Shown here one piece after another: positions 4,691-47,257 of a DNA stretch of 64,000 bases. The DNA lies in the IMG/VR virus record IMGVR_UViG_3300022468_000269, one strand, 5' to 3'. Both the position numbers and the translations under genes were made by a program. Under the pieces are notes generated by a model. It saw nothing but the letters and a program-made list of their open reading frames with translations, had not been told where the DNA came from and searched no databases. Source of the DNA: an uncultured virus (IMG/VR IMGVR_UViG_3300022468_000269) (lineage: Duplodnaviria > Heunggongvirae > Uroviricota > Caudoviricetes). Positions within the stretch are counted from its first letter, which is position 1; each line of letters opens with the position of its first letter.

Positions 4691-4871
4691 TGGCGGGGGA
4701 TATTTCGATGACGGACATTCGGAAATGGCTGACAGAAGTTCGCAAACTGGACGGCGCGCTTTTGGATCACATGGGGGTGGGCGCACGGCAGCACCCCCAA
4801 CTCGGCACAGTGGCGGCGTTCCCGTATCTGCGGGCAGGCAAGCCCTATGCCGCGAAGTTTCGCGCCGTTGA
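4512..4871 (+). CDS. primase zinc-binding domain encoded in a separate frame
   Basis: GGAGG at 4501, ATG 4512; TCPECSPTRRNKTDQCLSV...WNCWHCGHSGG resembles the T7 gp4/Twinkle-type Zn domain. Confidence 0.75.
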   Translation: MPSSYEILQRAGITVRKQSGTQRATCPECSPTRRNKTDQCLSVTFKPDGIVWNCWHCGHSGGGYFDDGHSEMADRSSQTGRRAFGSHGGGRTAAPPTRHSGGVPVSAGRQALCREVSRR

Positions 4872-17180: not shown

Positions 17181-17738
17181 ATGAGCCAATTCGTAATTCT
17201 GGGCTTCAAGACCGATTACAACGGCGAAAAGGCCGTGGATATGGTCGAAATCGCCCCCAGCGGTGAAGCGTTTGAACGGACGCACACATGGCACCGCATC
17301 AAGGACATCACCCCGCCCGCGCATCCGAATATGTCGTCGCCGTCGCACATTGCGATGGTTGAACGCTGGAAGGCCATCGGCCCCGCCTACGATGCGTGGA
17401 AGAAGGGCATGGATATTCCCGAGGACGGCACACCACTGGCTGTGTGGTCGGCTGTCTCGCCCGAGCAGGTGGACGTGTTCCGCCGCATGGGGCTTCGCAC
17501 CGTTGAAGATGTCAGCACCATGTCGGAAAGCGCCGTGGACAAGCTGCCCTTCCCGAACAAGCGCAAATTCCCGCAACTGGCCCGCGACTTCCTGGCGAAC
17601 CGCGACAAGGCCGGTGCGGCGGCTGAGATGGACGCCATGCGCGAACAGATGGCCGCAATGCAGGAAATGCTTGTCGAATACAGAAACGCCGAAAAGCGCG
17701 GCCCCGGTCGCCCCCGCAAGGAAGCTGAAGCGGCATGA
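17181..17738 (+). CDS. conserved phage hypothetical protein
   Basis: GTPLAVW...GLRTVEDV...; C-terminal KRGPGRPRK. Confidence 0.7.
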   Translation: MSQFVILGFKTDYNGEKAVDMVEIAPSGEAFERTHTWHRIKDITPPAHPNMSSPSHIAMVERWKAIGPAYDAWKKGMDIPEDGTPLAVWSAVSPEQVDVFRRMGLRTVEDVSTMSESAVDKLPFPNKRKFPQLARDFLANRDKAGAAAEMDAMREQMAAMQEMLVEYRNAEKRGPGRPRKEAEAA

Positions 17739-18445
17739 CCCTGATCGTTGACGCCCTGAACCGCATCGCGCGGCAGTGTTCCATTCAAGCGCCGTCATCG
17801 TGGCTTTCGGCCACGGCTGACGAGTTCGTTGAAATCCGTGACGACTTCCTGTCTGAGACGGTGGACGATGTGCTTGCGCGGGTGGATCTGGCCCAGCCAG
17901 TTGGGGCGTCAACAACCATCACTGGCACAGGCGTGGAAACCTACGCCTTGCCCGCGAATTTCCTGCGGATGCAGCGCGACGATTTGGCCGTCTATGACGA
18001 CGAATTGCAGCGGCAATGCTTCCCGATCACCACGGATGGGGAATGGACCGACCTGCAAGCCTTGGGCGCGGCGGGCGGTAGCAAGTATTATCGCGTGACG
18101 GGCTACGATGGGAATTTCGAGATTTCCTTCTATGATTTCCCGTCAACCGACATCACCGTGCATTACATCACAACCAACTGGATGGCGACGGCGGCAGGTG
18201 TGGCGGGGAATGAATTCACCTCGGCCACCGATGTGCTGTTGTTGCCGCGCCGGATCGTTGAGGCCGGGATTGTCTGGCGTTGGCGTGAACGCAAGGGCCT
18301 GCCGTTCGATGCCAAATATGCGGAATACACCGCTTTGCTGACGCGACTGGCGAATGACACCAAAGGCATCCGCTCCATCAATTTCGGCGACCGGAAGGTT
18401 GTGCGCTGGCAGGATCGTGTTCCCGCCTTTATCCCGGCGAGTTAA
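17735..18445 (+). CDS. head-tail adaptor (tail tubular protein A-like)
   Basis: Position and size; YALPANF, GIVWRWRERKGL. Confidence 0.7.
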   Translation: MTLIVDALNRIARQCSIQAPSSWLSATADEFVEIRDDFLSETVDDVLARVDLAQPVGASTTITGTGVETYALPANFLRMQRDDLAVYDDELQRQCFPITTDGEWTDLQALGAAGGSKYYRVTGYDGNFEISFYDFPSTDITVHYITTNWMATAAGVAGNEFTSATDVLLLPRRIVEAGIVWRWRERKGLPFDAKYAEYTALLTRLANDTKGIRSINFGDRKVVRWQDRVPAFIPAS

Positions 18446-26458: not shown

Positions 26459-27253
26459 ATGCAGCTTGGATTGGGCCTTGGGGTTACACGGCAGCAGGGC
26501 GGGTATTCGCCGCTTTCGCTATTCGCAGCATCTGAACAGGGCGCGTGGTATGACCCGAGCGACTTATCAACGCTGTTCCAGGACAGCGCCGGGACAACAC
26601 CTGTCACCGCAGCGGGGCAACCTGTCGGGCTTATGCGGGACAAGTCAGGACGGGCCAACCATGCCACGCAGACCACGGCGGCCTCGCGCCCAACGTATCA
26701 AACCAGCGGCGGGCTGCATTGGCTGGTGTTCGACGGTGTAGACGACTTCCTTGTCACGCCGACGATCACGCCGGGGACGGACAAGGTGCAGGTGTTCGCG
26801 GGGGTGCGAAAATCGAGTGATGCGGCGTCGGGAATTGCCGTTGAACTTGGCACTGATTCAGCGGCTCAAAACGGGTCATTCGGCTTGTTTGCCCCTTCAG
26901 TCTCGGGCGCGAATTCATACCGCTTTCTAAGTAGGGGGACCGTCACTAAGGACGCAGGAACCGGAGTATTTGCCGCCGCACCGGATACAGCGGTTGTCAC
27001 GGTGATTGGGGATATATCCGGGCCTTTGGCTTCACTCCGCCGCAATGGTTCCGTTGTCACATCCACAGCGACAGACCAAGGCACAGGCAACTACCTTGCC
27101 TATCCGGTCTATATCGGACGCCGTGGGGGCACAGCCCTGCAATTCAACGGCAACGTCTACGGCATGACCATGCGCTTTGGCCCTAACCTGTCCGCAGCGC
27201 AAATCGCGCAGGCTGAAGCCTACATGGCCGGAAAAACAGGGGTGACGCTGTGA
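26459..27253 (+). CDS. head-spike fibre-like protein with LamG/lectin-like domain
   Basis: N-terminal LGLGLG anchor; WYDPSDLSTLFQDSAGTTPV...DKSG...FDGVDD. Confidence 0.65.
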   Translation: MQLGLGLGVTRQQGGYSPLSLFAASEQGAWYDPSDLSTLFQDSAGTTPVTAAGQPVGLMRDKSGRANHATQTTAASRPTYQTSGGLHWLVFDGVDDFLVTPTITPGTDKVQVFAGVRKSSDAASGIAVELGTDSAAQNGSFGLFAPSVSGANSYRFLSRGTVTKDAGTGVFAAAPDTAVVTVIGDISGPLASLRRNGSVVTSTATDQGTGNYLAYPVYIGRRGGTALQFNGNVYGMTMRFGPNLSAAQIAQAEAYMAGKTGVTL

Positions 27254-29460
27254 CGCTTACGCTCGTAACGGTATCGGGCCAAGTGACTTTGCCGGATGGT
27301 TCAACCCCCACAAGCGGGAAAATAATCTTCAAACTGGCGCGCTGGGATAGCGAGGGAAGCGCAGTTGTTATCCCCGACAAGGTGCAGGCGGCCATAACAG
27401 GCGGCAATGTCTCCGTCGAAGTGTGGGCATCAGCCGAAGGCGAGAATGATGTTTATTACCAGATCATCGCGCAATATTATTCCACTGAGTTTCGGCGGAT
27501 CGTGGATGTGGTTTTGGCGCAATCTGTCAGTGTTCCGGCGCTTTCGCCTGTCAATCTGTCGTCGCTGATCGAGCAAATCTATATCCCCGAGGTGCGGCAA
27601 TCGGTGATCGGCGTTGTCCGAGCCGACCGCATACTTGCGCAGGACGCAGCGACCCGTGCCGAGGCCGTAGTGCCATTCGCCAACGTTGCGGAAGTCATCA
27701 GCGATACAGGCTTTTCCTACAGCACTGTAACGACGGGGCAGATCCTGCGCACGGCGGATGAGGGTTTCGCCTATGAGGTGGCGGCGTCCGGGGCGTCAGA
27801 TCACGACATAACAACGGCAGGCGGCGTCAAGCTATATGTGCAACCTGTGGCGGGCCAGCTTCCATTGCTTGCATTCGGAAGCCCTGGCGACGGGACATCA
27901 GATTTTTCCGCTGCCGTCCAAAAAGCCTTAAATGCTGCGGCAACGCGCGGCATCATGGAAATTGTAGCCCCCGCTGGGCGGTATGGTATCGGAACAGCAA
28001 TTGCATGGCCGCAATTGGCGTCTGTCCGCATTGTCGGGATGGGGTATAAACTCCTGCCCATTATCGGGACGCTATCTGAGAAACGGGGCGGAACTTGGTT
28101 CCGTCGCATCTCTGATGTGGCAATTTTTGACATGACTGGCGTTAGCAGCTTATCAGGTGGCCCGCTGACGCACAGGCCAAATTTATCTGGTTTGTTGCTT
28201 GATGGGGCTGGGCTTACGGCCCCTCTAATTGAGGCGCATTCTTGCACTGAATTGGTTGTCGACAACTGTGGCTTTATCGGAGTGGATGGTGTCGGCATAG
28301 ACGCCTTGGAGTTATTCGACAGCAGATTCACCAACTGCCGGTTTACAGAAATGGGCAAAGCGGATGGCACTGCTTGTATAGCTTTGCGCTCTGGCTTTGA
28401 CGGGCGAGAGTCCTCTAACCAGATTCATTTTACTGGGTGCGTTTGGGAAAGCTTTCCGGGCAGCGCCATATCTGCGAGAAAGTTTGATTCCGGCTCCATT
28501 GATGTAAACGAGATTTATTTTACGAACTGCAAAATGGAAACTGCAACCGGGGCAACGCCAATCCTTGATTTGCAGGATGTGTCAGGGATACACTTTGGGC
28601 TGTTACAACTAGCTTTGGCGGGTGACGTATCCGACACCATAGCCTCTCTTGTGTCTTTTACAGATTCGTCGGACATTTCTGGAACATTGCACGTCGAACT
28701 TTTCCGATCCACCGGGGCTACAGTTACCAATCATGTAGTTCTAACCAACTGTGCAAACGTTGCCTTGCAGGTTTTTGATTATGGGGAACGCGATGTTGCA
28801 TCGGGCATTTCGTGTTCGTCAAGCGTTGTGAACCCGTCAATCCAGTATGATTATGTCGGCTTGCTGAAGACGACAGTCGGAACAAGTTTCTCGCCTTTCA
28901 TAAATTCCCGAGGTCGCGGAAGATTGCAGGGTAAATCGGCGTCCCCGGCGTTGTTGCTGGACCGCAGCGATATAGCCGACGAACTGTGGGATTTGGCTGC
29001 GATTAGCGCAGATGGTGCCGGTTCCCGCTGGGAAATTACCCACAACGGAACACCCGTTCTCCGTATTAACGATGACAATACGATAACAAACCTCTTTGCG
29101 ATGGTGTTGGGGGCATCGGTCAATGTCAACAATAACAGGCTGGCAAATATTTCCGCAATGAGTCGAAATGCTTGGGCTATAATCACGAGTATTGCGGGTG
29201 GTGTTCTGGCTTGCGCTAATGACGACCATATTGTTGTGAACGCTAGTGGGGGAGGGAACGTTACTGATATAACGTCAAGTTTGTCAGGCATTCCTACCGT
29301 GACAATTAGAAACGTTGATGCGTCAGCGGTTACGTTTGTTCACAACACATCGAAGCTTCGTTGTATAGGTGCGGTGGATAAGGTCGTCAACCAGCATGAG
29401 TCAATCCAATTTGCCTTGGTTAGCGGGACTATCTGGCAGCAGGTTGGTGGTAAGGTATAA
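27250..29460 (+). CDS. tailspike / polysaccharide depolymerase (beta-helix)
   Basis: FGSPGDGTSDFSAAVQKAL...PAGRY pectate-lyase-like cap followed by beta-helix rungs; GC falls after ~27850. Confidence 0.8.
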   Translation: MTLTLVTVSGQVTLPDGSTPTSGKIIFKLARWDSEGSAVVIPDKVQAAITGGNVSVEVWASAEGENDVYYQIIAQYYSTEFRRIVDVVLAQSVSVPALSPVNLSSLIEQIYIPEVRQSVIGVVRADRILAQDAATRAEAVVPFANVAEVISDTGFSYSTVTTGQILRTADEGFAYEVAASGASDHDITTAGGVKLYVQPVAGQLPLLAFGSPGDGTSDFSAAVQKALNAAATRGIMEIVAPAGRYGIGTAIAWPQLASVRIVGMGYKLLPIIGTLSEKRGGTWFRRISDVAIFDMTGVSSLSGGPLTHRPNLSGLLLDGAGLTAPLIEAHSCTELVVDNCGFIGVDGVGIDALELFDSRFTNCRFTEMGKADGTACIALRSGFDGRESSNQIHFTGCVWESFPGSAISARKFDSGSIDVNEIYFTNCKMETATGATPILDLQDVSGIHFGLLQLALAGDVSDTIASLVSFTDSSDISGTLHVELFRSTGATVTNHVVLTNCANVALQVFDYGERDVASGISCSSSVVNPSIQYDYVGLLKTTVGTSFSPFINSRGRGRLQGKSASPALLLDRSDIADELWDLAAISADGAGSRWEITHNGTPVLRINDDNTITNLFAMVLGASVNVNNNRLANISAMSRNAWAIITSIAGGVLACANDDHIVVNASGGGNVTDITSSLSGIPTVTIRNVDASAVTFVHNTSKLRCIGAVDKVVNQHESIQFALVSGTIWQQVGGKV

Positions 29461-36473: not shown

Positions 36474-36974
36474 TCAAAAAGGGATTTCTGAATTAGGTTT
36501 GAAAGTCTTAGGAGGAGCAGCCTCAGGCTCATCAGCCTTGGTAGGTCGCTCTTCCATCTCTGCTTTCTCCAACACCACAATCTTCTCCAGTCGAGTACCG
36601 GGTACCTTGGAGGTGGTGTAGACAGTAACCTCTACCTGAACCTTGGAGCCGTTAGGAAGGAAGCCATCAGTGCTGAAGTCCCAAGGGGTACCATCTGCCT
36701 TGACCACATCAGGGGCACCTGAGGCCCACTCAAAGCGGTCCTTGTGTTTACGAGTGAACTTGACAATGAAGTTGCCATCATCATCAAACTTACCCTTCTT
36801 GGCAGAACCAGAAGCCTTCAGCAGTGCTTTGTTCTCCTTGTCCAGCATAACATCAATGGTGTACATACCATCCCATGCTGCATAGGCATCCTCGAATCCT
36901 TTCATGTCTCGGTTGGACTCAAAGACCTTAGCCCAGTAGGAGGTGCCAGTAAAGGTGTGCTTAGATGTTGCCAT
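36474..36974 (-). CDS. ssb: single-stranded DNA-binding protein (T7 gp2.5-like)
   Basis: GTSYWAKVF...NGSKVQVEV; acidic tail ending EIPF. Confidence 0.75.
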   Translation of the reverse strand: MATSKHTFTGTSYWAKVFESNRDMKGFEDAYAAWDGMYTIDVMLDKENKALLKASGSAKKGKFDDDGNFIVKFTRKHKDRFEWASGAPDVVKADGTPWDFSTDGFLPNGSKVQVEVTVYTTSKVPGTRLEKIVVLEKAEMEERPTKADEPEAAPPKTFKPNSEIPF

Positions 36975-37081
36975 AGTTTAGTTCCTCTTTCATTGAAAAA
37001 TAGATATCCATCAAGCTCTCATGGAGCCAGTAGTTCTCTGTAGTCTTGAAGTAGTATGAGTCTTCTTTCTTAGTGTAGACC

Positions 37082-37110
37082 ATTATAGATCAGTCCTTCC
37101 ATGTTGTCAA
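37082..37110 (-). promoter_or_regulatory. consensus sigma70 promoter overlapping the 3' end of a mini-ORF
   Basis: TTGACA-acatggaaggactgatc(17)-TATAAT. Confidence 0.85.
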
Positions 37111-37293
37111 GTGTGTTGTTGCTAGGACTGTACGTTCAGTGGTGTTTTGTAGGGTGTTGTATTTGTAGTCGTCTATCCATAGGAAATGTCTATAGCTAGC
37201 TGAGTGCGGTCTGAAGTGGTCCCTAATACCCACATATTTATAACTCTTTGGATTATCACTGAACTGTATAATACCCTGCTTCTCTACTTCCAT
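37090..37293 (-). CDS. mini-ORF family member (67 aa, divergent)
   Basis: MEVEKQGIIQFS...VLATTHLTTWKD. Confidence 0.65.
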   Translation of the reverse strand: MEVEKQGIIQFSDNPKSYKYVGIRDHFRPHSASYRHFLWIDDYKYNTLQNTTERTVLATTHLTTWKD

Positions 37294-37454
37294 GTGCTTA
37301 TCTCCGTAGGGCCAAGGAGTACATAACCGTTATAGCTATTGATGAGCATGGTTTCTAATGAGTTGACTCCAGTAGCACAGTTACGCCAAGACAACCCCGT
37401 GTTCGATGATACACCGTAAGGTATCCTAGTGTACTTATCATTCTTGATTATCAT
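37284..37454 (-). CDS. mini-ORF family member (56 aa)
   Basis: Manual translation MIIKNDKYTRIPYG...GYVLLGPTEISTWK. Confidence 0.75.
   Translation of the reverse strand: MIIKNDKYTRIPYGVSSNTGLSWRNCATGVNSLETMLINSYNGYVLLGPTEISTWK
37290..37324. repeat. direct repeat copy 1 (3' motif of mini-ORF)
   Basis: ccatgtgcttatctccgtagggccaaggagtacat; 26 of the first 27 nt identical to 39171-39197. Confidence 0.9.
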
Positions 37455-37621
37455 TTCCAGAATCCTAACTCTACTGGGGCTACCTTGGTGTCTTCAGCCC
37501 CTACACTCGTAGTCTGCTTGTAGAGTGTTAGTTCATTAAGAACATAGAATTTACAGTTACTTTGTATCAATGTTCTAACACTTCTAAAAGATGACTTATA
37601 GATACCAGTTCTATCACTCAA
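37451..37621 (-). CDS. mini-ORF family member (56 aa)
   Basis: TTG start overlapping polA stop; SDRTGIYKSS...KVAPVELGFWK. Confidence 0.7.
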   Translation of the reverse strand: MSDRTGIYKSSFRSVRTLIQSNCKFYVLNELTLYKQTTSVGAEDTKVAPVELGFWK

Positions 37622-38634
37622 TGGCTCTCTCCCCAGTTTCTACCAAGCTTACCTTCGATACCCATAGGGCAGAACAGGTTGAGTCTCTTGTTCACCCTGT
37701 CCATAGCCTCATGTTGTATCTGGATAAGTCTGTCTCCATCTTCCTTGGTCTGTACTTCTACCTGAACTTCATCATGTACAAAGTCTACATGTCTAAACCA
37801 CAGTCCCTCTGCTCTGGCTTGCTTACGCCATTCAACAACCCAATGCTTTGCAATAACACTCTCACCATTCTGTAGGTAACCAGCAAGCATCAAGTGCTCA
37901 GAGTTGCAATTAACTTTCCTACCATCAAGACCAATGAAGTAACCACGACTAGCATCAGTAGGAATCTTGAAGTCCTTAAGCTTCTTGAGTTCAGGGAAAG
38001 CCTCAAGGAACTTGTTACAAGCATCAGCAGCTTGCTTGATAGAGCAGCTAAGAATCTCTGCCACCTTAGGTACAGAGGCACCTAGTAGCCAAGCATAGAT
38101 GAATGTTTTACTGGTGTCTCTGTCTTTACACACTGAGCCTAGAGCACCCATATTAATGGTATGGATATCAGTACCAGCTTTCTTGTCACCACGCATGATA
38201 GCTGTACGCCATGTATCAGACTTCATGTAGCAGGTAAGGACACGTAGCTGTGCAGAGTCAAGGTCAGTACCTACAAGCCAGTGTCCCTCATCTACACCCC
38301 ACAAGGCACGAAGGTTGTAGTCGTACTTAGCCTTGACTTCCTCTACGGGGGTCTTAGGGTCACCGTGGAAGGGAGAGAAGATGTTAGCTTGATTAGGAGA
38401 GCTATGAGACATACGACCACTCCAAGCACCGATACCCCAGAACTTACCATGAATACGAGAGTCCTCTTCAGAGACACATCCTAGCCACTCTACAAGGCTC
38501 TGCTTACGTCCGTTAAGGGTGAGCCACTTGGCTAGGTCAGAGGCTTCCTTAGGGGCGCTGGAGGGGAGTGTGTTAAGGTTCTCCTCTGATGTCTTCCAAC
38601 CATACTTCTTGTAGTGTTCTGTCTTGTCTACCAT
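37618..38634 (-). CDS. polA: DNA polymerase A, C-terminal polymerase half
   Basis: SGRMSHSSPN, motif A DLDSAQLR, motif B RDTSKTFIYAWLLG, motif C VHDE. Confidence 0.92.
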   Translation of the reverse strand: MVDKTEHYKKYGWKTSEENLNTLPSSAPKEASDLAKWLTLNGRKQSLVEWLGCVSEEDSRIHGKFWGIGAWSGRMSHSSPNQANIFSPFHGDPKTPVEEVKAKYDYNLRALWGVDEGHWLVGTDLDSAQLRVLTCYMKSDTWRTAIMRGDKKAGTDIHTINMGALGSVCKDRDTSKTFIYAWLLGASVPKVAEILSCSIKQAADACNKFLEAFPELKKLKDFKIPTDASRGYFIGLDGRKVNCNSEHLMLAGYLQNGESVIAKHWVVEWRKQARAEGLWFRHVDFVHDEVQVEVQTKEDGDRLIQIQHEAMDRVNKRLNLFCPMGIEGKLGRNWGESH

Positions 38635-38819
38635 GCACTTATCTCCTTAGGGCCAATGAAATCCCACTTATACATCATAAACATACCATGCTCAGATTTC
38701 ATACAATCACTATAGTAATAGTCAGGTCCATAGTTTAGTGGGTAGTATTTTGTAGGACTCTTATGAAAGGTAATCTCACCAATATCCCTATCGCTAGCGT
38801 ACATCCCCAGTTCTACCAT
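38628..38819 (-). CDS. mini-ORF family member (63 aa)
   Basis: MVELGMYAS...FIGPKEISAW. Confidence 0.75.
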   Translation of the reverse strand: MVELGMYASDRDIGEITFHKSPTKYYPLNYGPDYYYSDCMKSEHGMFMMYKWDFIGPKEISAW

Positions 38820-38992
38820 GTCACCAACTCCTCTGGTCCTATTTTATAATGGGTACCTTTCATATCACTCCAAGGGCGTCTACGTATCATATCAAACTCT
38901 GTGGTATAACTTATTGTACTAGAGTTACAGATAAGATTCATGTAAGGTGTGTTAGGTTTCTTATACCATACTCCCATTTCTTTGCTTACCAT
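38813..38992 (-). CDS. mini-ORF family member (59 aa)
   Basis: MVSKEMGVWY...KIGPEELVTW. Confidence 0.75.
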   Translation of the reverse strand: MVSKEMGVWYKKPNTPYMNLICNSSTISYTTEFDMIRRRPWSDMKGTHYKIGPEELVTW

Positions 38993-39174
38993 TTGCATAC
39001 CTCACTAGGTCCAAGGTAGGCCCAACCGTTTTCCATAAACTCTTTATGGTCGGTATGTCTACATTGATAACAGCTAGTTCTGTGACTATTACTCAATTCA
39101 AAATACTCAATAAAACCATTCATAAAAGCTACCCTTTGACTACTGATGTACATACCCGGTTCGATGTCTACCAT
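38986..39174 (-). CDS. mini-ORF family member (62 aa)
   Basis: MVDIEPGMYISS...YLGPSEVCKW. Confidence 0.75.
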   Translation of the reverse strand: MVDIEPGMYISSQRVAFMNGFIEYFELSNSHRTSCYQCRHTDHKEFMENGWAYLGPSEVCKW

Positions 39175-39338
39175 GTGCTTATCTCCGTAGGACCAAGAAG
39201 AGTACATTTACTAGAAGTTTTATGCCTATAATAAGCACTCGCTATAGCTGTTGAATTATTAGGAGACTTAACCCAACCTCGAATTTTTCTAAGATTAAAC
39301 TTAGGTGCATAGATTACCTCATCAAATTTAATTATCAT
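39168..39338 (-). CDS. mini-ORF family member (56 aa)
   Basis: Manual translation MIIKFDEVIYAPK...CTLLGPTEISTW; ATGA overlap with polA-N stop. Confidence 0.75.
   Translation of the reverse strand: MIIKFDEVIYAPKFNLRKIRGWVKSPNNSTAIASAYYRHKTSSKCTLLGPTEISTW
39171..39207. repeat. direct repeat copy 2
   Basis: ccatgtgcttatctccgtaggaccaagaagagtacat. Confidence 0.9.
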
Positions 39339-40192
39339 TTACGTTTCTCCCTCAGGAATTTCTTGTGACCGTCAGTCATGTCTTTAGGTTTCCAACCAGC
39401 TTCCCAGAGAATGTCAATACGTTGTTGAGGGCTACCGGGATTGAACTCTTCATAGTCAAAACATATTAGGTCATCACCCTCAATCTTGGTAAGTGGGTAG
39501 CCTTCCATAGCATCGGTGACACTAGAGAACAAGCTACCATCTTTCTTGGTACGGTACTTGATACGCTTGACCTCAACTAACTTAGGTGGGAAGGCAGACT
39601 TGAAGCCATCCTCTAGCACCTTAATCTCTGACTCAATCTCCTCAAGCATAACCTTGGCCTTAGGGATATCAAACTTAAAGCCTTGCTTACCCATGTCATA
39701 GCAGACCATAGCTGTATCGTGCTCTACACGCATTGACAAGGCCCACGCAGGGTCATAAATCTGAGGCTTGTAGTGATTAAAGATAGCCTCAAGTACCTCT
39801 ACATCCTGCTCACCATACTCAATCATCTCTGGTGTACATTCATCCCAAGTACCAGTGTACTCACCCTTGAATACACCAAGGTATTCACCTAGTTCCTTGA
39901 GAGAATGAGTACTAAACTTGGAATAGTTAACTAGTTTGGAAACAACCATAGTATCAATGACAGAGAAAGGATTGATCAGACCTTCCTTGACCAACCTGTT
40001 GATCACCCAACAATCATAACCTAGACCGTTATGGAACACCCACTTGTCTGGTTGATAGAATGTAACCCATGCCTCAAAGGCTAGCATGTCAAAGAAGGTC
40101 ATAACAAATCCATCAAGAGTCTTGACCCTGATGAAGTGAATCTTAGTAGGTGTTAGGCCATTAGCTTCTACATCAGCTAGTACTATCTTCAT
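39335..40192 (-). CDS. polA: DNA polymerase A, N-terminal 3'-5' exonuclease and part of thumb
   Basis: ExoI DVEANGL, ExoII HNGLGYD, ExoIII YGEQDV, FNPGSPQQ...GWKP. Confidence 0.9.
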   Translation of the reverse strand: MKIVLADVEANGLTPTKIHFIRVKTLDGFVMTFFDMLAFEAWVTFYQPDKWVFHNGLGYDCWVINRLVKEGLINPFSVIDTMVVSKLVNYSKFSTHSLKELGEYLGVFKGEYTGTWDECTPEMIEYGEQDVEVLEAIFNHYKPQIYDPAWALSMRVEHDTAMVCYDMGKQGFKFDIPKAKVMLEEIESEIKVLEDGFKSAFPPKLVEVKRIKYRTKKDGSLFSSVTDAMEGYPLTKIEGDDLICFDYEEFNPGSPQQRIDILWEAGWKPKDMTDGHKKFLREKRK

Positions 40193-40400
40193 CGTAATAG
40201 TCCTCAATCAAGAGTTCCATAAGTTGTCTAGCTTTCTCCCTCATTCTATACGGCATTGGGTTACTGCCATGAGTCTCAAATTCTATTACACTCTTAGTAG
40301 GAACGTGAGTAAATGTCCACCTTTGATGCCAACCACCAATACCCATACCAACTCTTTGATCAGATACTTTAATCCATAGGTCTTCTTCTTTAAGTTTCAT
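40173..40400 (-). CDS. small protein resembling the peptide-chain release factor (RF-1) domain
   Basis: GIGGWH...FTHVPTKSVIE...REKARQLMELL resembles GGQ...ITHxPTG...NREKA. Confidence 0.5.
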   Translation of the reverse strand: MKLKEEDLWIKVSDQRVGMGIGGWHQRWTFTHVPTKSVIEFETHGSNPMPYRMREKARQLMELLIEDYYDEDSTS

Positions 40401-40403
40401 ATC

Positions 40404-40601
40404 TCACTCCCATCTCCATACCTCCAAGGGGAGTACTCTAGTATAGCTTTTTAAAGTATGTTCACCAGTTTCGACATCCCACCCTTTACCACCAAGACTG
40501 TATTTAGCATCTCTAAATGATGTATACCAACCTTTGCTATCCTCTACATGACAAATATCACTGGCTTTAAATGAACCATAGATTCCATCTAGCATTACCA
40601 T
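40404..40601 (-). CDS. mini-ORF family member (65 aa)
   Basis: MVMLDGIYGS...RVLPLEVWRWE. Confidence 0.7.
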   Translation of the reverse strand: MVMLDGIYGSFKASDICHVEDSKGWYTSFRDAKYSLGGKGWDVETGEHTLKSYTRVLPLEVWRWE

Positions 40602-40774
40602 AGGCTCAACTCCTTTGGTGCAATGATGGTGGTCCATTCAGTCTTAGGTATAGTGTGGTGTGTACCATAAGCGTACAGTCTCTCAGCGTAAGCAATTGAG
40701 CTAGGCTGGACTCTACGATAAGCCTTACCAGTCCAGAACATAATAAACTTTCTACTAGTTGTGGTCTTAATCAT
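40595..40774 (-). CDS. mini-ORF family member (59 aa)
   Basis: Manual translation MIKTTTSRKF...TIIAPKELSLW; GGAGG SD; ATGA overlap with primase stop. Confidence 0.75.
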   Translation of the reverse strand: MIKTTTSRKFIMFWTGKAYRRVQPSSIAYAERLYAYGTHHTIPKTEWTTIIAPKELSLW

Positions 40775-42297
40775 ATCTCTACCTCCTCAAGGAGTGTTGT
40801 CTCAGGTGAGTAGTATACTGCACCAGCATAACCAAGCTTACTAAAGGGCCTATTTTTTTCCACAAAAAATTTGGTGGTGTTAGCCACATCCTCGTCTGGG
40901 TTCTCTTTGTCTCTCTCAATACGAATACAGATGATAGCCTCTTCCTCTAGGCTACGAGCATACTTGGTATGACCATCTTCATTAACGTGAGAGATAAGGA
41001 TGATACCTACATTCAGTTCTTTCGCCAGTTGCGCAAGATTAGCAGCAAGCTTAGTAAGTATGCTAGTTGCACCGTCAATACCACCCAAATAAGCGAGACG
41101 TTGTACGTGATCAACAAAGATGTAGTTAGCACCATACACACCGGCAGCAAGACGACAATACTCAAGTACTTCCATAGGCTCATCACCAGACCTCATTTCA
41201 AATACAATGGTTCGTTCACCCTTGGTAGCAGCTACAGCAGCAGCCTCTACTTCAGCCTCAGTAACACCACGTTCCTTAGCATCATCCTTGGTACGTACAT
41301 TCTTCTTCAGTTCGTAAGTAGCCATACAGCGATAGGTAGTGGACTTCTGTTCCTCCATATGCAGCAAGCCAATCTTGCAATCACTTGATGACAGTAGTCC
41401 TGTTTCTATATACCGGAAGAACTCAGTCTTACCCGATCCGGGTGGGGCCTTAAGGAATGTCAGGCCACCCTTAACCATACCACGGATAACACCATCAAGA
41501 CCCTTGTGGCCAGTAGGGGTATACTCATAGGGGTTCTCTTCACGAAGGATGGAGATAACCTTATCATCAGAGCAGAAGAAGTTATCTGGTGTCCACCGTT
41601 GGGGACGTAGTGCAGTCCACTTAAGCTCTGCCAGATCACCAGCCTGAAGGGCCTCGTTAGCATCCTTCCACTTGGTAAGGGGGATGTAGTAGAACTTGTG
41701 TGGAAGGGCCTTGTAGAGCCTGTCAGCAGCCTTCTTACCTGTCTTGTCTAGTTCACCAGCATACACTACCTCTTGGAATGTGTTGAGGTAGTCATACTGT
41801 TTCTTTACAAAATCATCCCCAATAGAGCCGGAAGGTAGGGACAGTACTGGCCAAGTTGAATCCATAGATTGATAGAGTGAAGCTGCATCGAACTCTCCTT
41901 CGGTGATATAGATACGCTTACTAGAAGCAGGGTTGACCTTAGGGCCAAAGAATTCTTTCATACCAACACCAGAATCTTTGATCCAAGAGTTAGCCTTGTT
42001 GTTATAGTCACGATATTTGACAGTGTGGGGATACTTGAAGGCATACCGTAGAGGCTTGCCTGTCTCGTCTAGTTGTAGTTGGATACCGTACTTCTCAGCT
42101 ACCTTAGGATCAAGACCACGAATGCCTTCATAGGTAACAGAAGATGGTTCCTTATTTTTGATGTTCACATAACTCTCCGTTTTTATTGTTCTGGTACATG
42201 AATGACAATAACCAATGCCATTAGAGAATAGGCTAAAGGAGTCATTGGCATGGCACTCAGGGCATTGTTGGTGTGTCTTGATAGGTGCTTCACTCAT
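40771..42297 (-). CDS. T7 gp4-like primase-helicase
   Basis: CPEC...CHSC Zn domain, ITEGEFDA, KDANE, APPGSGKT, FVDH, LISH. Confidence 0.92.
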   Translation of the reverse strand: MSEAPIKTHQQCPECHANDSFSLFSNGIGYCHSCTRTIKTESYVNIKNKEPSSVTYEGIRGLDPKVAEKYGIQLQLDETGKPLRYAFKYPHTVKYRDYNNKANSWIKDSGVGMKEFFGPKVNPASSKRIYITEGEFDAASLYQSMDSTWPVLSLPSGSIGDDFVKKQYDYLNTFQEVVYAGELDKTGKKAADRLYKALPHKFYYIPLTKWKDANEALQAGDLAELKWTALRPQRWTPDNFFCSDDKVISILREENPYEYTPTGHKGLDGVIRGMVKGGLTFLKAPPGSGKTEFFRYIETGLLSSSDCKIGLLHMEEQKSTTYRCMATYELKKNVRTKDDAKERGVTEAEVEAAAVAATKGERTIVFEMRSGDEPMEVLEYCRLAAGVYGANYIFVDHVQRLAYLGGIDGATSILTKLAANLAQLAKELNVGIILISHVNEDGHTKYARSLEEEAIICIRIERDKENPDEDVANTTKFFVEKNRPFSKLGYAGAVYYSPETTLLEEVEI

Positions 42298-42460
42298 CCC
42301 AGTAGCCTAACTCCTTCGGTCCAAGGACTACATCAAATTTATCAAAAGTTTGTATACTTCTTACACCGATTTGATGTTCGACATACTCTTCCCTTTTAAA
42401 GTACCTCCAAGTTTTACTAGAACTCATGTAAGCAGGTCTGTTAGAAACTAACTTAATCAT
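42290..42460 (-). CDS. mini-ORF family member (56 aa)
   Basis: Manual translation MIKLVSNRPAY...DVVLGPKELGYWDE. Confidence 0.75.
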   Translation of the reverse strand: MIKLVSNRPAYMSSSKTWRYFKREEYVEHQIGVRSIQTFDKFDVVLGPKELGYWDE

Positions 42461-42599
42461 CTGCATCTCCTAGATCAAAGTCTTCATACTCTAAGAAGTC
42501 TTCAGAGATTAGTTCATCAATCCAATCCTGACACTCTACACAGTACCAGTCAGTACCATCAAACTTGGCATCTGGTGCATCACAGCAATGGCATCTCAT
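42453..42599 (-). CDS. small acidic zinc-finger protein
   Basis: Manual translation MRCHCCD...YCVECQDWIDELISEDF... Confidence 0.65.
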   Translation of the reverse strand: MRCHCCDAPDAKFDGTDWYCVECQDWIDELISEDFLEYEDFDLGDADD

Positions 42600-44434
42600 A
42601 GGTTTACCTTTCCACCAGTCAGGAGATTGGAGAGTTGAGTGAACACAGCACCAGAGAGGTCATTGACATTGGTGATAGCAACACTCTTGGGGTACAGTCG
42701 GTTGACATGTTCTGTCTCAATACCGATACCTACACATTCTACACCATCCTTGACACACTCGTCAATAGCATTCTTGAGAGCAGCCTCAAGACTACCACGA
42801 CCGGGACCACCAATCATATCGTTAGCAGGTTGACCATCAGACAAGACCATAAGAATCTTACGCTTATGAGGCATAGCCTTCAGTTCTTCCTTAGCCCAGA
42901 GTACAGCATCACGGTCAGAGTTGTTACCACCAGCACAGTCACGGATAGCATAGACAGAACCTTTAGACACTTGAAGAGACTCATTGAACCCCTTGAATTT
43001 GTATAGGTTAAGAGGTTCATAGCGATGATAGGTAGAGCTAGAAGAATGTGCCTTACGTACAAGTTCATTTAGCTCAGTAGTGATACCAGAGTTCTCAAAG
43101 CCACTGATCTGGTACTTGATCTGCGTACCCTCAAGGCACTCAGCAAAGGCCATAACAGTGTCAGCAGCAGTACGTACACGGTCACCAGACATAGACCCAG
43201 AGAGGTCTACAAGCAGGTGTACAGCAGTGTCCTGCTCAAGACGATCTTGACGCATCTTGTAGACAGAAGGGCTACCTAGTACACCAGCTACCAGACGCTT
43301 AGTATCAAGACGACCAAACTCTCTACCAAAGTCCCAGTCACGCTGTTCTTTAGCCATAAGAGCACGGCGAAGTTTAGCCTTCATGGTGTTAACAAGACCA
43401 CCAAGCTGTACCTTGTGGCGCTCATAGTCAGCAGCATTGTTAGCCTTCATATTCTGCCAACGACGATTAGAACGAACAGGGGTTTTGTCACGAGTGTACA
43501 CTTCATCAAAGCGAGTAGACAGTACACGATATTTCTGGTAAGATTTAGCCTCTGGTGCATCATAGAACAAGTCTACCTGTTGCTTAAGGTAGTCCTTGAT
43601 CCATTCATTGCTGTCACCAGTAACTTTCATCTTACCACTAGCAGGACCGGGCATAGGCTTACCCTTAACCTTGTCAGGAACAGGCTTACCTTGTGTGATG
43701 TCTGCATTAGGGTCGTACTCAAAGTTCTCAGGGTCACCAGCAAGGCCCTCAACAGGCTTACCAGCAGCCTTATCTTTCTTGTCCTGCTCCTTATCAGAGT
43801 CAGACTTGGACTCTTCCTTAGTCAGCATCTTGTCAATCTCAATAGCCATATTCATTACTTGGCTAGAGTTCTCACACTTGTGTACTTCCTCAATCCACTT
43901 GTTACCCCATGCCTTCCACTCAGGGGTGAGCATGTCATACATCTCAGCATTAACATCACCACCATAAGACAGACGACCAGCACGAAGGATAGCAGCAGCC
44001 ACACCTTGCTCAGTCATACCATCGTATACATCTTTATGTTCTACCATGTCTGCTAGTTCTTTAACACCAACAGTCTGACTAAGCTGACGAAGGTTCTTCT
44101 CTGCACCGGGGTACTCAGCCATAACCTTACGCTCTAGCCACATATCCTCCAGACAATTCCAGATTTTATGTTGGCGCTCAGTGCTAGTGCTGGAGAATTT
44201 ACGGTGTGCCTCGAAGTCCGTGTGGCGTACATGACCTGCCTCATGGTCTACATAACCACGAAGAACCATAGCAGCCTCATGTGTAAGCTCTACGTTCTGG
44301 TCAAGAGAAGGAAGAACAATCTGCTTACCATCTGTATAAGCCCCATCACCTTCAAAGGCTAGAGTTACTTCTTTGTCACGCCCAAAGATAGCTGACGTGG
44401 TTACAAGTTCATGGACAAGTTCATGCGTTTTCAT
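42596..44434 (-). CDS. cobT: CobT-like protein (HExxH N-domain plus VWA domain)
   Basis: AYTDG...DHEAGH, MIDAS DLSGSMS, KILMVLSDGQP; start reassigned to MKTHEL. Confidence 0.75.
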   Translation of the reverse strand: MKTHELVHELVTTSAIFGRDKEVTLAFEGDGAYTDGKQIVLPSLDQNVELTHEAAMVLRGYVDHEAGHVRHTDFEAHRKFSSTSTERQHKIWNCLEDMWLERKVMAEYPGAEKNLRQLSQTVGVKELADMVEHKDVYDGMTEQGVAAAILRAGRLSYGGDVNAEMYDMLTPEWKAWGNKWIEEVHKCENSSQVMNMAIEIDKMLTKEESKSDSDKEQDKKDKAAGKPVEGLAGDPENFEYDPNADITQGKPVPDKVKGKPMPGPASGKMKVTGDSNEWIKDYLKQQVDLFYDAPEAKSYQKYRVLSTRFDEVYTRDKTPVRSNRRWQNMKANNAADYERHKVQLGGLVNTMKAKLRRALMAKEQRDWDFGREFGRLDTKRLVAGVLGSPSVYKMRQDRLEQDTAVHLLVDLSGSMSGDRVRTAADTVMAFAECLEGTQIKYQISGFENSGITTELNELVRKAHSSSSTYHRYEPLNLYKFKGFNESLQVSKGSVYAIRDCAGGNNSDRDAVLWAKEELKAMPHKRKILMVLSDGQPANDMIGGPGRGSLEAALKNAIDECVKDGVECVGIGIETEHVNRLYPKSVAITNVNDLSGAVFTQLSNLLTGGKVNL

Positions 44435-44435
44435 T

Positions 44436-44666
44436 TTATTCCCACCATACGAAGTTTTCAGGGATAGTGAAGGCATACTTCTTAGCTACTACATACTTAG
44501 TAAAACCTGTTTCACTCCAGTAAAGACCAGTAACTTTGTTTCGTTCGTTTATATTTTTAAACAAATAGTGTAATCCGTTTGGACTAAAACCACTAGAGGC
44601 TCTACCATCTTGAACATAATCGTATACTCCACTTTGGCTTATATAGACACCATTAGGATACTTCAT
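44436..44666 (-). CDS. mini-ORF family member (76 aa, divergent)
   Basis: MKYPNGVYIS...DGRASSGFSP...TIPENFVWWE. Confidence 0.65.
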   Translation of the reverse strand: MKYPNGVYISQSGVYDYVQDGRASSGFSPNGLHYLFKNINERNKVTGLYWSETGFTKYVVAKKYAFTIPENFVWWE

Positions 44667-44845
44667 TCCCATTTTAGTACCTCATGCGTTGCTAGAAGAA
44701 TAGGAAATCTTTCTTCCTCATCTTCTAGTGGCCAACTTAGTTCTCTATCTCTAATGTACCTGTATAGACTGGAGGGACTACAATAAGATGCACGACCATT
44801 ACTCACAAGTATAAAGCTATTCTTATCTTGACTTAGTAGTTTCAT
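44663..44845 (-). CDS. mini-ORF family member (60 aa)
   Basis: MKLLSQDK...NGRASYCSP...LLATHEVLKWE. Confidence 0.65.
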   Translation of the reverse strand: MKLLSQDKNSFILVSNGRASYCSPSSLYRYIRDRELSWPLEDEEERFPILLATHEVLKWE

Positions 44846-45054
44846 TTGTCCCACTCCATAAGTAGTGAAGGGGCCAACCTAATGGCCCACTTCGTTTTAT
44901 AAACACTATCGTAGTGTTCTGTTGGTCTTTTGGTACGTTTTAGAAAAGGGACTATCTTATCATTACCGGAGCCAAGACAACCCCTACTCAAACCCCAACA
45001 ATAGTAAATCTCACCATCTTCTGTACCCTTCCTCCAGAGTTCATTTAACAACAC
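44842..45054 (-). CDS. mini-ORF family member (~70 aa, start uncertain)
   Basis: ...GEIYY...RLAPSLLMEWDK. Confidence 0.55.
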   Translation of the reverse strand: MLLNELWRKGTEDGEIYYCWGLSRGCLGSGNDKIVPFLKRTKRPTEHYDSVYKTKWAIRLAPSLLMEWDK

Positions 45055-46684
45055 GGTCAATAATCCCTCGAATAACTGCATAGTCGGACTGGGTGGCACG
45101 ATCAAGCACAGTCATTTTAAGAGCCTCGGTCATGTTATCCTTACGACCACGGAAGACAGTATTAAGGTGGGCAACAGCTTTACCAACAGCCAACATACCA
45201 CGGGGGCTAATAGGTTGGAGAATCTTGGCATCTTGGAATGCCTTAAGATGTTCTTCAACATATTTGTTGATGATAATAGTCTCCCCATCAGTCAGGCCGG
45301 GATTGTGGCGAGAGAGCAGATCAGCCCGCTGTTCTTTGTTCAGATAGTCTACCTTACCCCAGATGGTGAAGCGATCAAGGAAAGCCAAGGATTGAGGCCG
45401 AGCACCTTGATACATACCATGCTCATCACCTTGTCCAACAGTGTTACCAGTGGCAAACATACGGAACATAGGATCAGGAGACACAAGACGCCCACCATCC
45501 TCAGTGATACGGAATGAGTTACCCTCAAGCACAGACTGCATCACATAGGCTACATCAGGACGGCAGAAGTCAATCTCATCAAAGGCTACAATGTAAGGAG
45601 ACTGCATCAGACGAGGCAAGATACCATCAACAAAGACAGACTTACCATCCTTGAGAGTATCCCGACCGATCAAGTCCATACGGGTAATCTCAGAGTCAAA
45701 GTTGATACGAGCAAAGGGCCAGTTAAGGTGCGCTGCAATCTGCTCAAGAAGAGTAGTCTTACCAGCACCAGTATGCCCTTGAAGATACATACGCTGATTG
45801 GATACGATAGCATAGAGAGCCTTAACAAGCAAGTCTTCACGGAAGATATAGTGAGGGTCAATGGTAGGCACATCAGGGTGAGCACCATCCCATTCCCATA
45901 CAGGGATATCAAAGGCAGCAGAGGTAGTCAAGGGGAACACTTTATCAATAGCCTTCATAACAATCTTACCAGAAGGAATAGTACCATCAGAGGTAACCTT
46001 AGTATCCTTGAAGGGCTTGGCAGCAAGTTCAGACTGAAGGCCACCAAGGGCATCCTTAAGAGACTGTACAGCCTTGTCACTAATCTTACGCTGTTCCTCT
46101 GCTTGTTTCTTGATAGTCTCCATCTGACCAGCAAGAGAACCAACAGACTTGAACCCTTCAACCACCTCATTCCAAGTAGGTTGACCGTAAGACTTAAGCA
46201 CAGTGTTAAGGATGTTCAGTTGCTCTGCACTAGAAGGAAGGCTAGGCATAATGACACCAGAAGGCACAGTAACCTCAGGTGTAGCTACACCACCAGCACG
46301 AGCAGCTTCAAGCTTACGATAAGAGTCAAAGAGAACCTCAACAAACTTATCCTCTTCAATATAGTTACAGACAATCTCTGCATCAGAAGGAGCAGCGAGA
46401 ATCTTTTCACAGTATTCACGATACGAGATGTGACCAGCAGCCATCATCAAGACAATGAACGGGGGTGTCCGCTCAGTAGCCTTATAGAACGTATCGCTAA
46501 CGTGTGCCTCTACCTTGTCATACAGATCAGGTTCAGTAGCCTTGATGATACGCTTAACAGCATGGCGAATCTTGCCACTGTCCCGCTCATGGCCTTCCTC
46601 TTCAATGGTGATTTTACCCTCTGCATTCTCAGTGAAGTTGATGTGCAGAAAGGGTGCGATTTCTTTCATCAGTTCAGTTGTCAT
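45041..46684 (-). CDS. cobS: CobS-like MoxR-type AAA+ ATPase with long N-terminal extension
   Basis: GHTGAGKT, RMDLIG, FDEID, FATGNTVGQGD...YQG...AFLDRF; start reassigned to MTTELM. Confidence 0.8.
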   Translation of the reverse strand: MTTELMKEIAPFLHINFTENAEGKITIEEEGHERDSGKIRHAVKRIIKATEPDLYDKVEAHVSDTFYKATERTPPFIVLMMAAGHISYREYCEKILAAPSDAEIVCNYIEEDKFVEVLFDSYRKLEAARAGGVATPEVTVPSGVIMPSLPSSAEQLNILNTVLKSYGQPTWNEVVEGFKSVGSLAGQMETIKKQAEEQRKISDKAVQSLKDALGGLQSELAAKPFKDTKVTSDGTIPSGKIVMKAIDKVFPLTTSAAFDIPVWEWDGAHPDVPTIDPHYIFREDLLVKALYAIVSNQRMYLQGHTGAGKTTLLEQIAAHLNWPFARINFDSEITRMDLIGRDTLKDGKSVFVDGILPRLMQSPYIVAFDEIDFCRPDVAYVMQSVLEGNSFRITEDGGRLVSPDPMFRMFATGNTVGQGDEHGMYQGARPQSLAFLDRFTIWGKVDYLNKEQRADLLSRHNPGLTDGETIIINKYVEEHLKAFQDAKILQPISPRGMLAVGKAVAHLNTVFRGRKDNMTEALKMTVLDRATQSDYAVIRGIIDRVVK

Positions 46685-46694
46685 GTGGTATCCT

Positions 46695-46886
46695 TTACCA
46701 GTTGAGCATTTCATTAGTGCAGAGTAAAGTACCTCTACAGGCACTTAGATTATAATCATACGAGCTACTATTAAACAACTCTGGTTCAGCTTCGTTAACT
46801 TTGTCACCTACACTAGTAAAGAACAAGTTACGGGTTGAATACTTTGACGAACCTCTTAGGTAACAGTAGAGTTTATCTGCCACCAT
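46695..46886 (-). CDS. mini-ORF family member (63 aa, divergent)
   Basis: MVADKLYC...TLLCTNEMLNW; GGAGG SD. Confidence 0.6.
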   Translation of the reverse strand: MVADKLYCYLRGSSKYSTRNLFFTSVGDKVNEAEPELFNSSSYDYNLSACRGTLLCTNEMLNW

Positions 46887-47257
46887 GTCTTGTCCTCCAT
46901 GATATAGGTATAGTCTCCCTTGATTTCAGACTTGGAAACATTAGTCCAGATACCGAGATACTTTAGATTATTCGTACCCATTGCACTGCCTCTAGTCTCT
47001 GCTAGAACTTGGTTATCAGGAAAGATAAGAAGGATAGACTCTTGATGTTTTACCCATCCGTAGGCTAGAACATAGTTAAGAAAATCCTCTTGATCACAAA
47101 TAAAACTATACTCAGGCACACCTTTATAGGTGCCGATACATAGCTTGAAGTCACCTTTAAGTTTCTTCATAGCCCTAAGCTTGTCGATATTGTGAAGGAA
47201 CTTAGCTATACTGTGCAGCTTATCCCCATCATCAATAGAGAATACTACCCTAGTCAT
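46856..47257 (-). CDS. conserved phage hypothetical protein
   Basis: CIGTYKGVPEYSFI...QESIL. Confidence 0.7.
   Translation of the reverse strand: MTRVVFSIDDGDKLHSIAKFLHNIDKLRAMKKLKGDFKLCIGTYKGVPEYSFICDQEDFLNYVLAYGWVKHQESILLIFPDNQVLAETRGSAMGTNNLKYLGIWTNVSKSEIKGDYTYIMEDKTWWQINSTVT

Follow-up and report, generated by a model that had tools for sequence, protein, structure and literature searches.

What are the 14 minute open reading frames (ORFs) that occupy the junctions between replication genes in an uncultured Caudoviricetes virus, and why do their products end so much alike? We address this question for a stretch of 64,000 nucleotides of the IMG/VR record IMGVR_UViG_3300022468_000269, called the window here, in which these ORFs, hereafter mini-genes, lie on the minus strand between positions 37090 and 46886. 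A first-pass annotation made from the letters of the DNA described them as hypervariable genes with a fixed C-terminal motif; all 14 are present at the six junctions where it placed them, with sizes of 56-78 aa, and the C-termini that it quoted are correct. In our judgement it is an even call whether they constitute a lineage-specific family of small accessory proteins, duplicating and quick to diverge, in which the 3′ ends also serve as the ribosome-binding site (RBS) of the next gene, and this is the reading that we prefer.

In the direction of transcription, mini-gene A (46695..46886, 63 aa, ending in LLCTNEMLNW) lies upstream of cobS. Mini-gene B (44842..45105, start uncertain, ending in RLAPSLLMEWDK) overlaps the 3′ end of cobS and is followed by C (44663..44854, 60-63 aa, ending in LLATHEVLKWE) and by D (44436..44672, 78 aa), which is directly upstream of cobT. 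F (42290..42466, 56-58 aa, ending in VLGPKELGYWDE) precedes the primase gene, after which come G (40595..40774, 59 aa, ending in IIAPKELSLW) and H (listed ORF 40404-40637; 65 aa from its coupled ATG, 40404..40601; ending in VLPLEVWRWE). Between the two pieces of polA stand J (39168..39338, 56 aa, ending in LLGPTEISTW), K (listed ORF 38986-39207; 62 aa from an ATG that overlaps the W codon of J, 38986..39174), L (listed ORF 38813-38998; 59 aa from its coupled ATG, 38813..38992; ending in KIGPEELVTW) and M (38628..38819, 63 aa), whose last codons hold the Shine-Dalgarno (SD) sequence and the ATG of the C-terminal polA piece. Three more follow that piece: N (37451..37621, 56 aa, TTG start), O (37284..37454, 56 aa), the final 10 residues of which are those of J, and P (37090..37293, 67 aa), with the divergent end LATTHLTTWKD. 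Several ORFs are shorter than listed because the true start is an internal ATG overlapping the preceding W codon (A-TGG). Four had been described as exactly 171 nt long, which holds for J, N and O and for F only from its second ATG (MIK...). Above position 28000, 22 stop-to-stop ORFs on the minus strand with 40 codons or more have a tryptophan within their last three residues; 14 of the 22 are the mini-genes, and one further such ORF lies out of frame inside cobS. After P, a 40-aa ORF (36961..37083, minus strand) is rich in aromatic residues like the N-terminal half of the mini-genes and has no C-terminal motif; with its weak profile match (E 3.6), it is a possible mini-gene remnant.

The mini-genes bear the marks of cistrons. 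Stop-free reading covers 0.99-1.00 of the junction sequence in the six regions, compared with 0.10-0.40 in shuffled sequences (2000 each), of which 0, 0, 2, 2, 24 and 83, region by region, matched the observed coverage. The close tiling that the first-pass annotation had pointed out, with mini-genes overlapping or abutting their neighbours, is therefore beyond chance in these shuffles. An SD-like site lies 9-15 nt (mostly 11-14) upstream of each mini-gene start examined, as it does in core genes, and ORFs of ~60 codons remain open at saturated synonymous divergence (dS) across three genomes. The SD sites and the maintenance of the ORFs speak for translation, and the mini-genes are probably made as proteins. 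They are also AT-rich relative to their flanks, as had been suspected, at 38.8% GC compared with 46.1% in ten flanking genes.

The feature that unites them is a C-terminal motif, [LIV][LIV]-[GAS]-P-x-x-[LIVM]-x-x-W. A loose regular expression for it recovered 13 of the 14 mini-genes and one false ORF among 188 small coding-strand ORFs in the phage part of the window that carries them. The same expression matched 9 of 2334 ORFs on the opposite strands of all 22 sources and 37 of 8932 (0.4%) in 54 unrelated cobT phage loci, so that the motif exceeds the background of ordinary coupled ORF ends. None of the eight coupled core genes in the replication arm ends with it. The distance from its W to the stop codon varies from 0 to 7 residues.

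Part of what recurs at these ends is nevertheless a signal in the DNA. In the window, 7 of 14 junctions show the W codon and the following start codon overlapping as A-TGG, with TAA or TAG next, which is why downstream ORFs often begin with MV(D/E/S/M); 'MII' N-termini likewise result from AAATGATAA (TGA-TAA overlap). The N-terminal MV(D/E) and MII forms thus trace to overlaps with TGG-TAG/TAA and TGA-TAA. The glutamate codon 4-5 codons before the W in the window is GAG and lies in a GGAG or AGGAG, the SD sequence of the next cistron. The 3′ ends of J, O and M are 82-100% identical over 33 nt; the reference copy of this repeat, D1, lies at 37287..37319 (minus strand), and other copies start at 38628, 38986, 39168, 40595 and 42296 with 64-91% identity to it. 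Since the glutamate at -4/-5, the A-TGG overlap and the MV and MII starts are all SD or start features, part of the window motif is a coupling signal.

A motif at the amino-acid level remains beyond this signal. Two IMG/VR relatives, L005 and L004, whose primase is 71% identical to that of the window, have ORFs of this kind at the corresponding junctions. There the glutamate is not conserved, the next ATG lies anywhere from 1 nt before the W codon (A-TGG) to ~20 nt after it, and the W codon is often itself part of GGAG; [LIV][LIV]-[GAS]-P-x-x-[LIVM]-x-x-W is kept regardless. The array-terminal copies of L005 (ending at 14604) and L004 (ending at 15488) have no coupled downstream gene and retain G-P-x-x-L-x-K-W. 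Across 41 copies from three genomes, aligned by their final W, 38 have L/I/V at position -8, 34 have G/A/S at -7, 30 have P at -6 and 39 have L/I/M/V at -3, frequencies that are somewhat inflated and partly circular because the relatives' copies were chosen partly by the loose expression and W-anchored. The motif proline is encoded by CCT (15), CCA (9), CCG (3) and CCC (3), and leucine by CTN as well as TTR codons. The junctions have no predicted RNA structure (mean z -0.09, n=41), and an RNA element there was rejected on this ground. The spacing of the tail may also resemble that of clamp-binding or PIP-box-like peptides, an idea that we set aside. In both relatives an ORF just upstream of cobS (L005 4498-4707 and L004 5049-5255) has the motif with Phe in place of Trp, with the ends MPINLVKF and MPFNLLQF, respectively; these ORFs may be divergent members.

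Do the 14 form one family beyond their tails? Full-length alignments exist for K with M (BLASTP E 3e-9) and for D with its ortholog at 9397-9642 in L005 (E 1e-10). J and O, the best pair within the window at 38% amino-acid identity, owe that figure only to both ends and have only the last 10 residues in common in the alignment. The earlier statement that the middles cannot be aligned thus applies to most pairs and fails for K and M. With the tail removed, 13 of 946 pairs still score at Z >5, and the copies have in common a loose aromatic pattern (G-h-Y near the start, a Y-x-Y stretch and an internal W). A profile built from the relatives' copies only placed 9 window mini-genes within the top 20 of 454 window ORFs. 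Iterating a hidden Markov model over the fetched loci gave no more than 16 hits, strict thresholds being unsuited to so divergent a family. We take the copies to be a network of paralogs that are old and diverge fast.

The family is restricted to a small clade. The window holds 14 copies, L005 ~16 plus remnants, L004 ~13, and L017, a 2-kb contig whose partial primase is 70% identical, two; L003, with a primase locus 100% identical to that of the window, was not counted separately. Of the small coding-strand ORFs, the loose expression matched 17 of 89 for L005, 8 of 95 for L004 and 2 of 7 for L017, and none in phage CRP-9, in phage CRP-13 or in all but three other primase-related loci. The family is absent from CRP-9 and CRP-13 (primase identity 56-57%), from other loci with 55-64% primase identity, from the cobavirus ICBM2, and from a further 54 cobT loci, in which cobT is 24-41% identical (50-53% in two partial ones).

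Within the clade the copies turn over quickly. Between cobS and cobT there are three copies in the window, four in L005 and one, degenerate, in L004; between the zinc-finger ORF and the primase gene one, three and two, respectively; at the polA joint four, two and two; and after polA three in each. The junction of primase and polA, the one that the L017 contig covers, has two copies in the window, one plus remnants in L005, three plus a 197-aa Cys-rich ORF in L004 and two in L017. Flanking primase and polA sequences are 85-86% identical at the nucleotide level between L017 and L005, yet whole copies have been inserted or deleted: where L017 has two intact copies, the first copy of L005 is truncated, the second is reduced to its start and a 45-nt end that is still 89% identical to L017, and L005 has an extra copy in front of the N-terminal polA piece. 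The L017 sequence itself (1-2061) is a rotated, circularised assembly with overlapping ends, in which a 526-aa ORF joins the start of that polA piece to the primase C-terminus; its natural order is primase, two intact mini-genes and N-terminal polA piece. One copy has been relocated, D being upstream of cobT in the window and its ortholog after the zinc-finger ORF in L005. Most copies of L004 and L005 are syntenic orthologs, with 9 of 16 best matches positional. Copy number and order thus differ between relatives by gain, loss, internal deletion and relocation.

The bodies also evolve fast. Between L005 and L004, syntenic mini-gene orthologs are 29-39% identical, compared with 67-91% for core proteins, and nonsynonymous divergence (dN) is 0.63-0.79 compared with 0.07-0.34 (dS saturated, ~0.8-1.6 where computable); the mini-genes diverge 3-10 times faster than their neighbours. 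At shorter range, a word-indexed protein search returned only close variants of two L005 copies, in Logan assemblies. Among the variants of one of these copies the first 17 residues are invariant, the aromatic core is kept and changes elsewhere are mostly conservative, a pattern that looks like that of a folded protein under some purifying selection.

As had been reported, four copies stand between the pieces of polA; that the mini-genes split the gene does not follow, since polA is also split where they are missing. CRP-9 and CRP-13 have an intact 652-aa polA that overlaps the primase gene directly. Aligned to these enzymes, the break falls in the linker between the exonuclease and polymerase parts, with ~18 linker residues missing, at the same place in the window, L004 and L005. 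In ICBM2, polA consists of two overlapping ORFs with neither insert nor mini-genes, and in a further locus, L024, an unrelated 83-aa ORF occupies the split. The mini-genes therefore occupy a joint whose existence does not depend on them, and which they did not have to create.

Signs of a mobility mechanism were sought in several ways. A search of 36900-47000 for repeats gave the direct one of 33 nt at the 3′ ends and nothing else, neither a longer direct repeat nor an inverted pair bracketing a copy, and there are no near-identical copies within the genome. As the first-pass annotation had stated, no integrase, reverse transcriptase or transposase is present, by Pfam, among the arm ORFs scanned, which comprised the larger ones and, within 35-49 kb, also the smaller. 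A relic of a homing endonuclease of the GIY-YIG type was rejected, as no copy has a nuclease domain (Pfam, E up to 0.1); some N-termini do read 'G-I-Y', after which, by eye, the rest of the GIY-YIG domain presumably does not follow. A diversity-generating retroelement target was dismissed for want of a reverse-transcriptase domain among the ORFs scanned and of a long repeat pair. Precursors of ribosomally synthesised and post-translationally modified peptides were likewise set aside, the neighbours being cobS, cobT, the zinc-finger ORF, primase and polA, with no enzyme domain of such a pathway. Promoter cassettes did not fit either, promoter-like sites not being enriched (19 found, 21.7 expected). 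In L004 only, the 197-aa Cys-rich ORF (11568-12161) lies between primase and the mini-genes and, by its N-terminal Cys pattern, looks like an HNH-type endonuclease; if so, the primase-polA junction also accepts a likely homing endonuclease.

Several observations weigh against a family of functional accessory proteins. GC content is flat across codon positions in the mini-genes (GC1 ~0.39, compared with 0.55 in core genes), which is atypical of well-constrained proteins, and the crude dN/dS of 0.41-0.95 (core 0.05-0.22) indicates weak constraint, with positive selection not demonstrable. Sister phages do without any copy, so individual copies are dispensable, as is the second primase-polA copy of L005, in which the start is fused to the C-terminal motif/RBS end (16 codons). 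AlphaFold models of two copies are poor (pLDDT 62 and 56), as are the ESM Atlas's own models (pLDDT 0.38-0.39). Without the tail, the mean Z over the 946 pairs is 0.32 and most pairs have no detectable similarity. Under the relatives' profile the high-ranking window mini-genes score only E 0.29-7.5, and the window profile reaches E 0.007-0.1 on L005, so that the genomes are barely connected. To these points must be added the partial circularity of the motif counts.

Given these points, the main rival, a real if unlikely contender, holds that the mini-genes are selfish or near-neutral cistrons, born of duplication at the stop/start junctions of an essential operon, which they fill, and kept mainly by a ratchet because each has become the RBS and start of the next essential gene, with bodies that are near functionless. 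This would account for the best-conserved part being the 3′ ends, which are the downstream RBS; for three window ends being alike over 33 nt while their bodies cannot be aligned; for the L005 copy deleted down to its start and its motif/RBS end; and for the high dN/dS, the flat codon-position GC and the poor models. It does not account for a motif whose conservation is in the amino acids, third codon positions varying freely and leucine drawing on both its codon families, nor for its retention in array-terminal copies that precede no coupled gene. The codons for P and [LIV][GAS] fall beyond the SD sequence, 16-24 nt upstream of the W codon, and the conservative replacements and invariant aromatic core of close variants, as well as the long-open ORFs of three genomes, also speak against functionless bodies. 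A proposal that accommodates the peptide, and that we regard as rather unlikely, is that the mini-genes are enzyme-free selfish cistrons that colonise the stop/start junctions of an essential, translationally coupled operon, the joint of the split polA included, and multiply by recombination between their conserved ends. Their C-terminal peptide would then serve their own life-style and not the phage, for instance by acting at termination and re-initiation or by keeping the product harmless, and they would be hard to lose because their last ~30 nt are the RBS of the next essential gene.

That the copies are active mobile elements, transposing or homing into gene junctions as the first-pass annotation had entertained, seems to us improbable. 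Their presence at six or seven junctions, including the split polA joint, the differences in number and order between relatives, the one relocated ortholog and the HNH-looking ORF at the L004 primase-polA junction would all suit such elements. The best pair within the genome is only 38% identical, however, and the lack of near-identical copies, inverted repeats, long direct repeats and any transposase, integrase, reverse-transcriptase or nuclease domain in the arm ORFs scanned makes active transposition unlikely; nor do the copies match a Pfam or PHROG family, most L004 and L005 copies are syntenic, and the polA split of ICBM2 has no mini-genes. Equally concerned with the ends is the idea of a nascent-peptide regulator, in which the C-terminal peptide would act within the ribosome at termination and tune re-initiation on the next cistron. 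Some 10 conserved residues next to the stop codon, with Pro and Trp, are comparable in length to known arrest motifs, the bodies vary almost without restriction, and all copies are in tightly coupled junctions; the variable distance from W to stop and the array-terminal copies, which keep the motif with no coupled gene downstream, make this quite improbable. We rate as very improbable indeed that there is no protein family at all and that the ends are merely the SD and start of the next gene read in another frame. The GAG that supplies the SD in the window, the A-TGG that forms the next start at half of the junctions and the MV(D/E) and MII starts that follow from overlaps do fit this artefact of translational coupling. 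What it leaves unexplained is a motif that L004 and L005 keep without the glutamate and with the next ATG 0-20 nt from the W codon, that is missing from all eight coupled core genes and at the 0.4% level in other coupled phage operons, and that is found in pairs some of which are similar over their full length.

In our preferred reading, that of a duplicating family of accessory proteins, the mini-genes would be paralogs encoding small (~55-80 aa), aromatic-rich proteins in one clade of cobavirus-like roseophages. They would be translated as cistrons of the replication operon (cobS, cobT, primase and split polA) by stop/start coupling, with the last ~10 codons combining the conserved C-terminal segment, the SD sequence and often the next start codon. 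The arrays would have grown by duplication and by recombination at the junctions and would undergo fast turnover through gain, loss, internal deletion and relocation, while the bodies diverge faster than the core neighbours. The protein may be a small beta-rich domain closed by the Trp segment. The first AlphaFold run, on mini-gene H, gave a poor model (pLDDT 62) with a beta-hairpin plus two further strands, and an ESM Atlas search with H and D returned no usable feature match, with all structure rows at TM <0.45. From the rapid divergence, the restriction to one lineage and the dispensability of copies we infer a dispensable accessory role, either in phage-host conflict or in modulating replication, with the tail perhaps a common docking or structural element. 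The anti-defence or host-takeover role that the first-pass annotation had in mind may be considered on the basis of fast evolution and lineage restriction.

Searches of sequence collections bore out the remark that this is not a described family, and no match to several unrelated known families emerged. Pfam matched 0 of the 14 window copies (E up to 0.1), PADLOC 0 of 41 copies, and a PDB profile search gave no match at E up to 10; PHROGs returned four single weak matches among 41 copies, the best (E 0.0028) for a window copy. An exhaustive HMMER search of 1.84 billion representative proteins with the 41-copy profile yielded four matches at E <=0.001, all of them query sequences, and the word-indexed search with the 14-copy profile recovered the window's own proteins only. 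Megablast of 37000-47000 against phage records gave no match, an exact 24-nt junction pattern occurred in IMG/VR only in this phage's own contig, and a metagenome scan with the C-terminal polA piece found one 56% relative, without the family. Literature searches, and the matching passages of the paper on CRP-9 and CRP-13 (PMC8528129), turned up no mention of such a family.

The mini-genes thus represent a previously undescribed expanded family of small genes in phages, and they recall several known systems without matching any. The class II genes of phage T7 (4.3, 4.5, 5.5, 5.7, 5.9 and others) are small, non-essential and interspersed among replication genes, and several act on host proteins. 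As in T7, the short ORFs are co-transcribed between primase/helicase, DNA polymerase and single-stranded DNA-binding protein (SSB) genes of a T7-like replication module. The small genes of T7 are mutually unrelated, whereas the mini-genes, 13-17 per genome, are one family with a common C-terminal motif and have no significant similarity to a PHROG family. T4-type phages reportedly carry gene cassettes flanked by PeSL elements in hyperplastic regions; there too, small ORFs of unassigned function vary in number and order, and a short conserved border sequence could mediate shuffling. A PeSL, however, is an intergenic promoter plus stem-loop, while the mini-gene stretch is coding, conserved as amino acids and without predicted structure (z -0.09), and promoter-like sites are not enriched. 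The nrdA gene of Aeromonas phage Aeh1 is said to be split by mobE, an inserted free-standing homing endonuclease; the likeness lies in an essential gene, here polA, made in two separately translated pieces with foreign ORFs between them, and the difference in that the mini-genes lack a nuclease domain and that the polA split exists without mini-genes in ICBM2.

Mycobacteriophage mobile elements (MPME), of ~440 bp, occur as near-identical copies with inverted repeats. They too are very small units with one small ORF at several genome positions; the mini-genes, in contrast, are <=38% identical and have no inverted repeats. The multigene families (MGF) of African swine fever virus (ASFV) and the K3L arrays of poxviruses ('gene accordions') are tandem, fast-diverging paralogs linked to host conflict. 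The mini-genes resemble them as tandem diverging paralogs whose copy number varies between close relatives, and differ in host and scale and in being embedded in the essential, coupled operon of a small podophage.

The setting of the mini-genes deserves some comment. The window is composite, with bases 1 to ~28,000 at 60% GC and the remainder at 41-49% GC. On sequence grounds the low-GC part (~29.5-64 kb) belongs to a cobavirus-like roseophage, with a large terminase 74.9% identical to that of Roseobacter phage CRP-5 and 73.4% to that of Lentibacter phage ICBM2, and a primase/helicase 57% identical to that of CRP-9 and 56% to that of CRP-13. The mini-genes sit in the minus-strand replication arm of this part. 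In order, and all on the minus strand, the arm comprises the cobS-like AAA+ gene (MoxR/AAA_5 by Pfam scan, 45041..46744), the cobT-like gene (CobT plus von Willebrand factor A (VWA) domain by Pfam scan, 42596..44476), a 48-aa acidic CxxC...CxxC zinc-finger-like ORF (42453-42599), conserved in L004 and L005, and the primase/helicase gene (Toprim plus DnaB_C, 40771..42297). Next come a 75-aa ORF (40173-40400) that matches phrog_37515 (E 1.9e-14, no assigned function) and the two pieces of polA identified by Pfam and alignment, N-terminal exonuclease (39335..40207) and C-terminal polymerase domain (37618..38634); an SSB-like gene and an exonuclease-like gene complete the arm. The 48-aa and 75-aa ORFs lie at mini-gene junctions and are not members of the family. 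The SSB-like ORF that follows the array (36474-36974, 166 aa) has no Pfam match and ends in SEIPF, which we take to resemble the tip at the C-terminus of bacterial SSBs; the corresponding ends are EIPF in the L004 ortholog and EVPF in that of L005. The final codons of mini-gene P contain a perfect 12/12 sigma-70 consensus (TTGACA, 17 nt, TATAAT; 37082-37110, minus strand), which the 40-aa ORF and the SSB-like gene closely follow, and TTGACA likewise follows the last mini-gene in L004 and L005.

At the other end of the arrays, directly upstream of mini-gene A, a 133-aa ORF (46856-47257, minus strand) has a weak S-adenosylmethionine lyase match (PF23780, E 3e-4, under the curated cut-off) and may be an anti-restriction SAMase. 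The high-GC first 28 kb, on the plus strand, carries a second, distinct phage-like gene set, with a Toprim/DnaB-type primase-helicase (4690-6114), a P22-like portal (10968-12926), an ART-PolyVal domain protein (13477-14610) and an SU10-type adaptor (17735-18445). The shift in GC is located within a 736-aa pectate-lyase-like tailspike ORF (27250-29460), which suggests either a chimeric assembly joined in a shared tail-fibre gene or a true mosaic.

Where ORF ends recur in coupled operons, constraints on the nucleotides and on the protein are mixed, and the two need to be separated before a motif is called. It is unusual for a podophage of ~40-55 kb to devote ~2.7 kb to 14 divergent copies of one tiny gene, all in the replication operon. 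If these copies are largely selfish, they would show how genes can persist by owning the RBS of an essential neighbour, which bears on the origin and spread of small genes in viruses. If they are functional, they would amount to a compact natural library in which small variable domains are joined to a constant C-terminal tail, carried by marine Roseobacter phages that are abundant, and would be candidate host-interaction or replisome-modulating factors without known relatives.

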